Assembly (NCBI RefSeq): GCF_024298765.1
Contig: NZ_CP101210.1
DNA from: Escherichia coli
GTDB taxonomy: Bacteria > Pseudomonadota > Gammaproteobacteria > Enterobacterales > Enterobacteriaceae
Direction: 5' to 3' (one strand)
Length of the DNA stretch: 64,000 nucleotides
Part shown: positions 54,001-57,000 of the stretch, piece after piece
Layout: each line of letters begins with the position of its first letter
How positions within the stretch are numbered: the stretch's first letter is position 1
Position numbers: made by a program

Positions 54001-57000
54001 CCCACCGTTCAGCCTCGATAAGTGGGGCCATGACGAGGCCGAGAACGATAAGTTTGGCCGTTTTCGTCGCGGTGTACCGCCGAAGACTAAAGGAGATTAC
54101 GCTTTTATCTCGCATATGATCGAAACCCTGAAACCGGGAACTGGCCGTATGGGCGTAGTTGTGCCACACGGTGTGCTTTTCCGTGGCTCCAGCGAAGGCA
54201 AAATTCGCCAGAAACTGATCGACGAAAATTTGCTGGATGCGGTAATTGGTCTGCCGGAGAAATTGTTCTACGGGGATTCCTGCAGCAATTCTGATTTTTA
54301 AAAAGCAGAAAGTGGATGATAAGGTGCTGTTTATCGACGCCAGCCGCGAATTCAAGGCGGGTAAAAACCAGAACCAGCTCAGTGAAGAAAACATCGAAAA
54401 AATCGTTAAGACCTACCGCAATGGCGATAACGTCGAGAAATACGCTTATCTTGCCAGCCTGAAAGAGATTCAGGACAACGACTATAACCTCAATATCCCG
54501 CGCTATGTCGATACCTTTGAAGAAGAGGATGAGATTGACCTGCTGGCGGTGCGAGCAGAACGCGAGCAACTGAAGGCGGAATTGGCGAAGCTGGAAACGG
54601 AGATGGCTGGATATTTGAAGGAGTTGGGTTATGGCTCGTGATTCGCTTTACCCAGTGAGCGTTAAAGCTGGAAAACCGATCCTTGGAATGCTACCTACAG
54701 GATGGCAAAAGTTATCATTAGAAAAGTGCTTAAATATAGAGGCAAGAAAGGCATATATACAAGATAATCAAGAGTATGACTTAGTTACAGTAAAGCGCTC
54801 CAGAGGTGGCGTAATAAGACGTGAGCATCTTAAAGGAAAAGATATCTCCGTAAAAAGTCAATTCTATATTAAAGAAGGCGACTTTCTCATATCAAAACGA
54901 CAAATTGTGCACGGTGCAAACCAGTGGGCTGGGCCATGTCGTTCTCGCCGGACAGCAGGCTCACCATGAAAGCACTGGAAATGGTATGGGAAACCCGTGG
55001 TAAGCCCGTCGGGGTGATGTTCCACAGCGATCAAGGCAGTCATTATACGAGCAGGCAGTTCCGGCAGTTACTGTGGAGATACCGGATCAGGCAGAGTATG
55101 AGTCGGCGTGGAAACTGCTGGGATAACAGCCCAATGGAGCGCTTCTTCAGGAGTCTGAAGAACGAATGGGTGCCGGCGACGGGCTATGTAAGCTTCAGCG
55201 ATGCAGCTCACGCAATAACGGACTATATCGTTGGATATTACAGCGCACTAAGACCGCACGAATATAATGGTGGGTTACCACCAAACGAATCGGAAAATCG
55301 ATACTGGAAAAAACTCTAACTCGGTGGCCAGTTTTTGTTGACCACTTCACTAAGACCGCACGAATATAATGGTGGGTTACCGCCAAACGAATCAGAAAAC
55401 CGATACTGGAAAAACTCTAACGCGGTGGCCAGTTTTTGTTGACCACTTCATACCGCAGGAGGCATGATGGAGAGCATTAATAATCAAGTGCAGTCGGTAC
55501 GCCAGTTGCTGGCCATTCCCCAACTGGCCATCCCAAGCTATCAGCGACCTTACCGCTGGGGCTCCAAGAATATCTCGGATCTCTTTACCGATTTGGCAAC
55601 CCATCAGGACAAGAGCGCCTACCGGCTGGGCTCGGTGGTGTTTCATCAGCACACCGATAGTGAGCAGGGCGAAATGCTTGATATCGTCGATGGTCAGCAA
55701 CGCACCCTGACCCTGATGTTGACCGTCAAGGCGCTGATCGAGGTGCTGGATAACGAAAATCGCAGTGGCAAAGAGAAGAGTATCCGGTTTCAACGTCAGG
55801 ATCTGCGTGAGCAATTGCAGGTCTTGCGTGGACCTATCGATGCGTTTATGCAGCGCCAGCGCTTCCCCAGCCGGGATTCGGAGTTCAACCTCAGACGTAA
55901 CTATCTGGAGTTGCGTCGGCTGGTGGCCCGCCCTGAGTTTGACGAGCAGCAAATTGACTTTCTGCTCAACCGCTGTCAGGTGGTCTGCTTTGTACTGCAG
56001 GATATCTCGGAGGCGTTCCAGTTCTTCGATTCGCAAAATGCCCGGGGGCGCGATCTGGCTCCTCACGATCTGCTCAAGGCATTTCACCTGCGCGAGTTTG
56101 CCGGTCATGAGGCCAATCTCAAGGCCGAGGCGGTCGCCCATTGGGAGCGCCTGCCAAGCGACGAGCTGGCCAATCTGTTCGCCCTCTATCTCTATCGGGT
56201 ACGCCAGTGGGCCGAGGGCAAGTCGGCCCGCTACTTTGGCAAGGGGGAGGTGGATCTCTTCAAGGGGGTCAACCTAGATCGGGTAGGGCATTATCCTTAC
56301 GTGGAGTCGCTGCGCATCGCCCACCACTTTGTCGATGAGTACAACAGCCAGTACCAGCGCAAGATTGACGGCCAGTACATGACGTTTCCCTTTCATCTCG
56401 ACCAGATGATCATCAATGGTCGGCGCTTTTTCGAGATGGCCGAGTACTACCAGACGCGGGTGGCCGCCATCGTGGCCGAGGAGTCTGATTCCGGCAAGGC
56501 GCAATCTGCCACCCTGCTCGGCGAAACGCTGACACCGATGGCCAGCAAGGTGCTATCGACCCTGGGCAGCTACGAGCGTCGCCACCGCACCGGGGATCGT
56601 TATGTGCGGGCCATGTTCGACTGCGCCCTGATCTTCTATATCGACAAGTTCGGCAGCCAAGGGCTGTCACTGGCCATCGAGAAGTGCTTTATCTGGGCCT
56701 ATCGCTGCCGCATCCGCCAGCAGGTAGTGCAGTTGGCAACCATGGATAACTATGTGCTGGAGCACAATCTGATCCGTGCCATTCGTGATGCTCGTCTGCC
56801 GGGAGATCTGCACGGCTTCCCTTTGCCTAGCATGAGCAGTCGAGAGAACAAGAACAATCGCAATGGTGCCGAAGATGAGCTGGTCGGGCTGTTTCGGGAG
56901 ATGAAATATTATGAATGATGCAGGCGTTCGCCCCTTTTCCATTCGTGCACTGCTTGAAGATCGCGCCCGCTATCTGGTGCCCATGTACCAGCGCAACTAT

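Follow-up and report, generated by a model that had tools for sequence, protein, structure and literature searches.

Gene content of the locus

The window (the whole 64-kb stretch of E. coli DNA that was analyzed) harbors two intact DUF262 genes, upstream of which only hsdM and hsdS remnants of a type I restriction-modification (R-M) operon are left; hsdR is absent. A 213-bp end fragment of ISKpn26 (IS5 family; 53578..53789, minus strand), which repeats 42646-42858 according to self-BLAST and to the RefSeq annotation of a near-identical locus, abuts a truncated gene for the type I methylase, hsdM (53789..54641, plus strand). In RefSeq, hsdM is a 5'-truncated and frameshifted pseudogene (L001, where positions 10940-11792 equal 53789-54641 of the window). 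The hsdM promoter region is deleted in this lineage, and hsdM is full-length in genomes Ecol_244 and NT1N25. The junction between ISKpn26 and hsdM marks the sub-lineage where the double IS end described below arose. Next come approximately 96 N-terminal codons of the restriction-specificity gene hsdS (54631..54917, plus strand), fused at 54917/54918 to position 819 of an insertion sequence; the open frame continues to 54969, and at one identical locus the truncated hsdS is annotated 'restriction endonuclease subunit S domain-containing protein'. Beyond the IS sequence lies the tail of hsdS (55451..55467, plus strand), comprising the last codons (LPQEA), a Shine-Dalgarno sequence GGAGG (55458-55462) and a TGA stop that overlaps the start of the next gene.

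The first DUF262 gene (55467..56918, plus strand; alternative ATG at 55464) carries the Pfam domains GmrSD_N and DUF7834 with DGQQR at residue 75, and the second (56911..58953, plus strand) carries GmrSD_N and GmrSD_C/DUF1524 with DGQQR at residue 79. The two genes overlap by 8 nt. TgvAB, a type I-embedded GmrSD-like type IV restriction system, has been described on Vibrio cholerae VPI-2 (PMC11411939), and the E. coli pair resembles it in consisting of two overlapping genes, the first with DUF262 only and the second with DUF262 and DUF1524, each with DGQQR. We refer to the two genes as TgvA-like and TgvB-like on the basis of this architecture and of the same publication, as putative counterparts of V. 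cholerae VC1767/VC1766. A further point of similarity is that relatives of the E. coli pair sit between hsdS and hsdR in a five-gene operon. The order hsdM-hsdS-DUF262-DUF262-hsdR is native to relatives from many genera, in which the stop codon of hsdS overlaps the start of the first DUF262 gene. Among related loci, hsdM was found upstream in 31/62 and hsdR downstream in 36/66, and the Rahnella operon (L017) was confirmed with Pfam. In Aeromonas australiensis (L011), the hsdS/DUF262 boundary reads '…TGCATCCGCC/TACCGCAGGAGGCGTGATGG'. In contrast to TgvAB, the type I surroundings of the E. coli pair are wrecked (hsdM a pseudogene, hsdS truncated and hsdR missing), and the pair survives as an orphan of a type I R-M operon that has been taken apart.

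Since the hsdS stop overlaps the DUF262 start in the native operon, the IS took the place of the 3' end of hsdS and not of a promoter. Its landing site, as read from the sequence, is about six codons before the hsdS stop. The original prediction, that IS-derived sequence had replaced the native promoter of the module, is contradicted by the 16 nt before the start codon, which are the last hsdS codons with their Shine-Dalgarno sequence and hold no promoter.

Two stacked right ends of an IS911-like element

Between the hsdS remnants, the last approximately 101 bp of an IS3-family element occur as two head-to-tail copies, one of 102 bp (55248-55349) and one of 101 bp (55350-55450). Direct alignment bore out the description of these as imperfect tandem copies with the inverted repeat (IR) included: 4 substitutions and one 1-bp indel separate them, and each contains a full 36-bp terminal inverted repeat with the CA ending of the family (55314-55349 and 55415-55450). 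A 27-nt IR probe had 2 exact matches in 64 kb, with 0.00 expected by chance. The register of the repeat is ambiguous by a 2-bp 'CA', starts at 55246/55348 being equally valid. Copy 1 terminates exactly at the IS terminus, as expected because a junction made by transposase must end there. From the end of copy 2, it is 13 nt to the ATG at 55464 and 16 nt to the ATG at 55467, the RefSeq-annotated start in identical loci. The array went unreported by Tandem Repeats Finder (53000-58000) and was seen by repeat search and direct alignment; Rfam at permissive E-values gave no match in 53000-57000.

The element is ISEc52, a 1250-bp relative of IS911; both belong to the IS3 family, whose insertion sequences move by copy-out-paste-in. 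Alignment with an intact reference copy from strain Nissle (L003:521-1770; 1250 bp, IR-bounded, with a 3-bp direct repeat GTT) established that the repeated unit is indeed the IS terminus. The window carries IS positions 819-1250 (54918-55349), followed by 1149-1250 again (55350-55450). The longer remnant (54918..55349, plus strand) comprises the 3' part of orfB and the right inverted repeat (IRR), with copy 1 as its end, and is colinear with the Nissle element with 2 mismatches in 432 bp: position 863 is C, the base of the resident variant, and 886T is a lineage SNP. An open reading frame at 54924-55319 matches the DDE transposase families rve, rve_3 and rve_2 in Pfam, over the C-terminal part of the domain only. 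The likeness to IS911 and ISEc52 thus comprises the match over 819-1250, the 36-bp IRR, a partial orfB with rve and an outward -35 hexamer TTGACC in the IRR; unlike those elements, the window has two right-end fragments and no whole element. A BLAST search with the whole IS found only 819-1250 and 1147-1250, with no left inverted repeat (IRL), orfA or 5' part of orfB anywhere in the 64-kb window, so the fragments are immobile.

Each copy corresponds to a different variant of the element. Somewhere between positions 864 and 977, the remnant turns into canonical, 'b-type' ISEc52 and remains so through to its end. Many ISEc52 copies match copy 1 and the 68 bp upstream of it (55180-55349) with 100% identity (790 records at 99% identity or more), and the complete IRR of copy 1 (55314..55349, plus strand) is identical to the published 36-bp IRR of IS911 (oligonucleotides IRRb and O5; PMC2909936 Table 1). 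Copy 2 (55350..55450, plus strand) is of the older, resident 'a-type', recognizable by 1181G, 1193A, 1199C, 1222G and one A fewer at 1209. It is 100% identical to a second E. coli variant present on other full and partial copies (L004-L006; 308 records at 99% or more), and its IRR is one base off the published IS911 sequence. All 5 differences between the copies coincide with two pre-existing IS variants. Position 978, upstream of the repeat, also switches to b-type in the double clade. A simple tandem duplication of one template is ruled out by the match of each copy to a distinct variant; the copies are evidently the right ends of two stacked ISEc52 (IS911-like) variants and not one end duplicated.

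Distribution and alleles among E. coli genomes

Among 5426 complete E. coli genomes, 254 carried the DUF262 gene. The IS end lay six codons before the old hsdS stop in all loci examined (14/14). The double form, b-type followed by a-type, was found in 3 of the 254 carriers. One genome, CUPF09, has a single b-type end and is a close relative that collapsed to copy 1 only, and the other loci sampled had a single a-type end (9/9). It had been proposed that duplication is unusual for an IS end; the rarity of the structure stands, while its description as a duplication of one end gives way to that of two distinct ISEc52/IS911 variants. At the same site, genome PD7 has a fuller IS copy with both ends (1-131 and 741-1250), which indicates that the original insertion was a complete IS.

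With Aeromonas australiensis as the root of a SNP table, derived bases characterize the double clade, which falls within the single-copy alleles; this rooted comparison places the double form as derived. The same junction between ISKpn26 and truncated hsdM (ΔhsdM) is shared by CREC629, ECO13, TUM18780, E92, 50EVA, EM20 and CUPF09. The first four of these, which are the nearest single-copy relatives, combine this junction with IS 863C, 978C and an a-type end. The double clade also has 863C, but with 978A and a b-type end, from which it follows that the b-type tract begins between 864 and 977 and reaches 1250, as predicted by insertion and subsequent crossover. Within the same remnant, E92 has a 26-SNP conversion tract, so the remnant recombines with other IS copies. 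Site 223A is common to the double clade, TUM18780 and E92 and absent in CREC629 and ECO13, a conflict which indicates that recombination between lineages blurs the tree. Genomes Ecol_244 and NT1N25 combine 863C/978A with an a-type end, the product expected from collapse of the double allele, so the history of the locus may have been more complicated. PD7 and class II remnants never carried b-type sequence.

Proposed origin of the double end

We propose, with a probability of roughly two in three, that the scar consists of the right ends of two ISEc52 elements brought together by nested insertion and recombination, and that it is neither a duplication of one end nor a promoter replacement. An a-type element of the ISEc52 family inserted six codons before the hsdS stop, directly upstream of the TgvAB-like pair, after which a deletion joined hsdS codon ~96 to IS position 819. 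The resulting single-end remnant, carried along by the island, reached about 250 of the 5426 complete E. coli genomes. The next step would have been the transposition of a b-type, canonical ISEc52, oriented like the remnant, into positions 1149-1151 of it; this would have happened in a sub-lineage whose hsdM had also lost its 5' half. RecA-type recombination between direct repeats of ~330 bp (819-1151, present in both remnant and newcomer) would have deleted the left part of the newcomer, leaving, in order, hsdS', a b-type 819…1250 segment, an a-type 1149…1250 segment and tgvA. The 101/102-bp repeats stay recombinogenic, CUPF09 having collapsed to a single b-type end.

In common with nested IS insertions resolved by homologous recombination, the locus has two related IS ends in direct orientation with the outer junction at an IS tip, a flanking remnant that is a mosaic of two variants, and a repeat that collapses in a descendant. 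It differs in that a whole nested IS was not found here, and the pathway is reconstructed from the end product. The predicted left junction of the nested intermediate, '...GCGCACTA/TGAAGTGGTTTACTG', was searched for with a synthetic query joining IS 1051-1151 to IRL 1-100 and had no contiguous match in the 5426 genomes. There were only two-piece matches from neighboring IS copies, among them PD7, which is the fuller IS copy and not the intermediate. Among the matches listed (best 40), the junction of the IS tip to position 1149 was matched contiguously only in the three double-allele genomes, the others being two-piece matches to ordinary IS copies. The proposed recombination would have erased the 3-bp target duplication. 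We also considered insertion of IS911 targeted next to an IR, on which Loot and Rousseau have reportedly worked; it was set aside because the end of the newcomer lies 101 bp inside the resident end and does not abut its tip.

The same final sequence would also result if duplication came first: the resident IS end would have been duplicated in tandem (102 bp) at the 2-bp 'CA', by slippage or by illegitimate recombination, and a canonical ISEc52 at another genomic site would subsequently have converted copy 1 and the sequence upstream (at least 978-1250). The 'CA' microhomology is present at the junction, the E92 tract attests that other IS copies can convert the remnant, and the absence of the nested intermediate from the 5426 genomes favors this order of events. 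On the other hand, two rare events would be required, the endpoint exactly on the IS terminus would be a coincidence, and the conversion tract would have to stop within the last 28 bp of homology. Moreover, no allele with two a-type copies appeared among the top matches at the locus, and we regard this history as unlikely.

It is more doubtful still that the double form is ancestral, with an early insertion of b-type into a-type and the common single-copy alleles arising by collapse via the 32-34 identical bases at the repeat start. Collapse certainly happens (CUPF09), and the alleles of Ecol_244 and NT1N25 are exactly the expected product. However, the double clade carries derived SNPs together with the derived ΔhsdM junction, and it is nested among single-copy alleles with a-type 978C, which collapse of a double allele cannot yield. 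PD7 and class II remnants hold no trace of past b-type sequence, and several independent collapses with an identical crossover would be needed. As for a repeat mis-assembled at an IS end, we give the idea practically no credence even though IS ends are common sites of assembly errors and Tandem Repeats Finder was silent on the array. Three complete genomes that were assembled independently (USA, Singapore and Laos) share the double structure with the window, so this structure is not an assembly artefact; the copies, moreover, differ at 5 positions that match two real IS variants.

Promoter potential of the stacked ends

The IRR of IS911 carries an outward -35 element, and hybrid promoters have been described for IS3-family elements (PMC9330008). 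As in the IS911 junction promoter (Pjunc) and such hybrid promoters, the IRR -35 at this locus faces outward, toward the downstream gene; unlike in Pjunc, the junction in the window joins an IRR to internal IS sequence and not to an IRL. The hexamer TTGACC is present twice (55338-55343 in copy 1 and 55439-55444 in copy 2). At a spacing of 16-18 nt, the sole -10 is CATGAT (55463-55468), which overlaps the start codon. A better -10, TATAAT in copy 2 (55365-55370), lies 21 nt from the copy-1 -35, giving 11/12 hexamer matches. On the plus strand, a consensus promoter scan with 16-18 nt spacers gave no promoter from 53300 to 55438, and a terminator scan gave no terminator between the hsdM remnant and the DUF262 start. 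Promoter prediction gave no clear support to an outward-reading IS promoter for the module: the -35 occurs twice, but no -10 stands at a functional distance that would keep the ribosome-binding site in the transcript. We rejected the idea that translation of the orfB remnant is coupled to the DUF262 start, since a TGA within the IRR ends the a-type frame and the b-type frame ends earlier (55317-55319).

A case can nevertheless be made for IS-derived sequence, and notably for the new junction that pairs the copy-1 TTGACC with the copy-2 TATAAT, as a DUF262 promoter that would make up for the operon promoter, which disappeared together with the 5' half of hsdM. Besides the documented outward -35 and the near-consensus hexamers created by the junction, a start at this position would keep both the Shine-Dalgarno sequence and the start codon in the transcript, and the double allele arose in a lineage devoid of the hsdM promoter. 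The 21-nt spacer, however, is outside the range of the consensus scan, which found nothing there. Sigma-70 promoters with 21-nt spacing are very weak, and this counts against the proposal, as does the fact that the other -35 pairs only with the CATGAT over the start codon. The genes have stayed intact with just one copy of the repeat in four sampled ΔhsdM genomes (CREC629, ECO13, TUM18780 and E92), and the junction is gone from a fifth, CUPF09. We consider such a promoter very improbable. Slighter again is the chance that the junction of the IS ends made a weak sigma-70 promoter (TTGACC at 55338, 21-nt spacer, perfect TATAAT at 55365) that was kept for restoring transcription of the TgvAB-like pair after loss of the operon promoter; if true, it would represent promoter birth by the stacking of IS ends. 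Most likely, the scar has little or no effect on expression, lengthening by 102 nt a leader whose transcription must begin further upstream or be only weak.

Implications

The double IS end is an ordinary, unstable scar in a small E. coli lineage, and the finding matters little beyond correct annotation. Annotators should treat the copies as pieces of two ISEc52/IS911 variants and not as a regulatory duplication, and assign the 16 nt before the first DUF262 gene to the end of hsdS. As for expression of the TgvAB-like pair in E. coli, read-through or distant promoters would be worth looking for. The locus offers a natural allele series (single a-type, double b-type and a-type, single b-type) that illustrates nested insertion, recombination and repeat collapse.

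Two different ISEc52 ends lie upstream of the DUF262 genes

The repeat consists of a 102 bp copy (55248-55349) followed head-to-tail by a 101 bp copy (55350-55450), which differ from each other by four substitutions and one single-base indel. Its register is ambiguous by two bases owing to a 2 bp 'CA' common to both sides of the junction. Tandem Repeats Finder reported no array at 55248-55450; a 27 nt terminal-repeat probe gave two exact matches in the 64 kb window (0.00 expected by chance). The original prediction of an imperfect tandem IS3-family terminus with its inverted repeat was thus borne out, as was its distance of 13 bp to the first DUF262 start codon, provided that the ATG at 55464 is meant; 16 nt separate the second copy from the ATG at 55467, the RefSeq start at identical loci.

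A BLAST search of 5426 complete E. coli genomes identified the element as ISEc52, an IS3-family relative of IS911. E. coli Nissle has an intact copy of 1250 bp (L003:521-1770), which begins with TGAAGTGG, ends with CCACTTCA and is bounded by a 3 bp direct repeat, GTT. In alignment with it, window 54918-55349 corresponds to IS positions 819-1250 with two mismatches and 55350-55450 to a second run of positions 1149-1250, so that the repeated segment is, as proposed, an IS terminus. The IS911 right inverted repeat (IRR) and primer O5 (PMC2909936) are reproduced base for base by the final 36 bp of copy 1 and the 14 bp preceding them. The remnant, fused to truncated hsdS' at 54917/54918, retains a partial open reading frame for the C-terminal part of an rve integrase domain, and no ISEc52 left end or 5' part was found anywhere in the 64 kb window.

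Copy 1 and the 68 bp upstream of it are 100% identical to many ISEc52 copies (b-type; 790 records at at least 99% identity). Copy 2 matches a second variant (a-type) at 100% identity; this variant is marked by 1181G, 1193A, 1199C, 1222G and an A-run shorter by one at 1209, and it also occurs on full-length or partial copies at unrelated sites, for example in AZ159, 214-4 and APEC O2-211. All differences between the copies are therefore pre-existing variant differences rather than divergence after duplication, and the proposed duplication of one IS end was not upheld.

The two ends also differ in coding content. The canonical ISEc52/IS911-type end (55305-55319) has six A's at 1209 and an orfB stop TAA (…YWKKL, stop) before the IRR; the a-type end (55406-55443) has five, and orfB continues to a TGA within the IRR (…YWKNSNAVASFC, stop). 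RefSeq flags the six-A form as 'frameshifted' although it is the common variant. Inside copy 1, on the minus strand opposite orfB, lies a terminator-like hairpin with a T-run (TGGTGGTAACCCACCA TTATATTCGT; 55268-55283) that could stop transcription coming into the IS from its right end. Its a-type counterpart has one stem mismatch, and the scan count of such sites was not above chance expectation.

The IS ends occupy the tail of hsdS

A search across the genomes of 100,044 species yielded 80 related loci. Among those with sufficient flanking sequence, 31 of 62 have hsdM upstream in the same orientation and 36 of 66 have hsdR downstream, and a 400-500-codon open reading frame usually stops no more than a few bases from the DUF262 start. 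In Rahnella ecdela five genes overlap end to end (Pfam N6_Mtase/HsdM_N, Methylase_S, GmrSD_N+DUF7834, GmrSD_N+GmrSD_C and HSDR_N/SWI2_SNF2). Aeromonas australiensis reads '...TGCATCCGCC|TACCGCAGGAGGCGTGATGG', with the E. coli IS tip exactly at the bar, and window 55451-55467 still encodes the hsdS tail LPQEA-stop and a Shine-Dalgarno sequence. Given this operon layout and the hsdS tail, the DUF262 genes never had a promoter of their own here, and the suggestion that the IS had replaced a native one does not hold. The IS inserted about six codons before the hsdS stop, a later deletion removing most of hsdS. In its architecture, its DGQQR motifs and its position the E. coli pair agrees with TgvAB (PMC11411939), a GmrSD-like type IV restriction system that is type I-embedded.

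In A. australiensis CECT 8023, whose DUF262 genes are the nearest to this pair (97% amino-acid identity), a mini-ORF upstream of them (L011 5890-6003) reads like the first ~11 hsdM codons (MAIKKNELYSS) joined to the last ~20 hsdS codons (LLKQGMMQRLLTGCIRLPQEA, stop); the type I genes have been deleted there as well, with the upstream region and the coupled DUF262 start retained. Most E. coli carriers (L002, L008, L092 and others) have hhe (DUF4011 anti-phage helicase Hhe), not hsdR, after the pair; in the window IS1 replaces the pair-hhe junction, followed by stbA and an AAA-ATPase/TPR gene pair (~60510-64000).

The IS911 IRR contains a documented outward -35 that forms part of the IS-circle junction promoter (PMC9330008). 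This -35 occurs at 55338 and at 55439. The sole partner of the latter, CATGAT, lies over the start codon, so its transcript would have no ribosome-binding site. At the new junction the 55338 -35 is followed after 21 nt by a perfect TATAAT at 55365 (11/12 hexamer matches, spacer over-long); the single-allele equivalent is ATTACA-20 nt-TATAAT. Promoter birth at the junction of the IS ends is a novel reading of low probability, and the putative role of an outward IS promoter for the DUF262 genes is unsupported in silico. The stretch from hsdM' to the start codon contains no plus-strand terminator, which leaves room for read-through from upstream; in the window's lineage the 5' half of hsdM is missing together with its promoter.

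The double allele is restricted to one lineage

The window is E. coli chromosome, with 6 SNPs over 21 kb relative to strain 2020CK-00188. The downstream DUF262 gene is present in 254 of 5426 genomes, at at least 99% identity in every one, and an ISEc52-family end adjoins the same base in 14/14 E. coli loci examined. Besides the window, the double allele (b-type then a-type) was found in 2020CK-00188 (USA), 50EVA (Singapore) and EM20-18-50 (Laos), three independent complete assemblies that rule out an assembly artefact. CUPF09 (Thailand) has a single b-type end, the rest of its module being identical to the window, and all 9 other loci sampled have a single a-type end. In PD7 the IS copy at this site has kept its two ends, positions 1-131 being joined to 741-1250, and its body is a-type (863C, 941C, 978C), which indicates that the original insertion was a whole a-type element.

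An alignment of 3.5 kb spanning both DUF262 genes covered 15 E. coli loci and was rooted with the A. australiensis locus (97% identical). The double-allele clade has the derived bases 448T, 2514A and 223A (the last otherwise only in TUM18780 and E92). It shares the further derived bases 1850G, 1860G and 2975A with CREC629 and ECO13, 3451T with these and PD7, and a unique ISKpn26|ΔhsdM deletion junction with CREC629, ECO13, TUM18780 and E92. These four are single-copy, with 863C, 978C and an a-type end, whereas the double clade shares their 863C but differs in having 978A, and its b-type end is followed by an a-type end. In this clade b-type sequence therefore replaced the remnant from a point between 864 and 977 to the IS tip; the old a-type end is retained downstream of it. 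EM20-18-50 is basal to the other members and CUPF09 falls among double alleles, so the single b-type end of CUPF09 represents repeat collapse. The SNP table conflicts at site 223, and 978A is combined with an a-type end in Ecol_244 and NT1N25; the double form is likely rather than certainly derived.

In a second class of E. coli loci (L091, L093-L095: PD7, 99COLEC, GZEC065, YZMc10-2) the DUF262 pair lies downstream of an intact type I R-M system and an M48 metallopeptidase, and hsdS' is replaced by a truncated IS1 fused to a shorter remnant of the ISEc52 family (1003-1250, or 1-131 + 741-1250). GZEC065, YZMc10-2 and 99COLEC have a SNP in the kept hsdS tail (TACCCCAGG or TACCACAGG). Outside this class, E92 carries an ISL3-family element between hsdM' and the remnant, and TUM18780, at the same place, IS100.

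In the window, two IS1 copies in the same orientation (50457-51224 and 58969-59736; 94.4% identical; annotated IS1A-like/IS1 family) bracket 7.7 kb comprising an inovirus Gp2 pseudogene, an IS3-family element, an ISKpn26 fragment, hsdM', hsdS', the IS ends and the two DUF262 genes, a layout resembling a composite transposon. The full-length IS3-family element (52261-53580, minus strand, annotated with a programmed frameshift) adjoins the ISKpn26 fragment and has a left end (…TAGACTGGCCCCCTGAATCTCCAGACAACC…) that resembles IS2. A 213 bp ISKpn26 end occurs twice in direct orientation (42646-42858 and 53578-53789; 99.5% identical). The ~10.7 kb between includes lutABC, dld and a lactate permease gene (lactate utilisation) and is absent from 50EVA and CREC629, which suggests an IS-mediated insertion or rearrangement confined to the strain group of the window.

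Nested insertion and recombination best fit the double end

The best-fitting route invokes routine events only. A canonical ISEc52 would have inserted at positions 1149-1151 of the resident remnant, oriented like it, and homologous recombination between ~330 bp direct repeats (819-1151 of remnant and newcomer) would then have deleted the newcomer's left part. Such a route would account for the exact coincidence of the end of copy 1 with the IS tip, for the retention of the hsdS'-819 junction and of 863C, for the switch of position 978 to b-type, and for the difference in type between the two copies. The nested-ISEc52 intermediate was not found among the 5426 complete genomes and the target duplication would be erased, so we can only infer the insertion step.

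The main rival reaches the same product by tandem duplication at the CA microhomology and subsequent gene conversion. Conversion does affect the remnant: in E92 (L098) positions 980-1114 of the hsdS'-fused remnant carry 26 clustered SNPs relative to ISEc52, apparently a conversion tract from a more distant IS911-like copy. However, this rival requires the duplication endpoint to fall on the IS tip by chance, and no a|a double allele occurs among the top-ranked matches at the locus. The two-copy structure is a real but ordinary IS scar of known kind, and as a double IS end it is rare (3/254 carriers), lineage-restricted and unstable.
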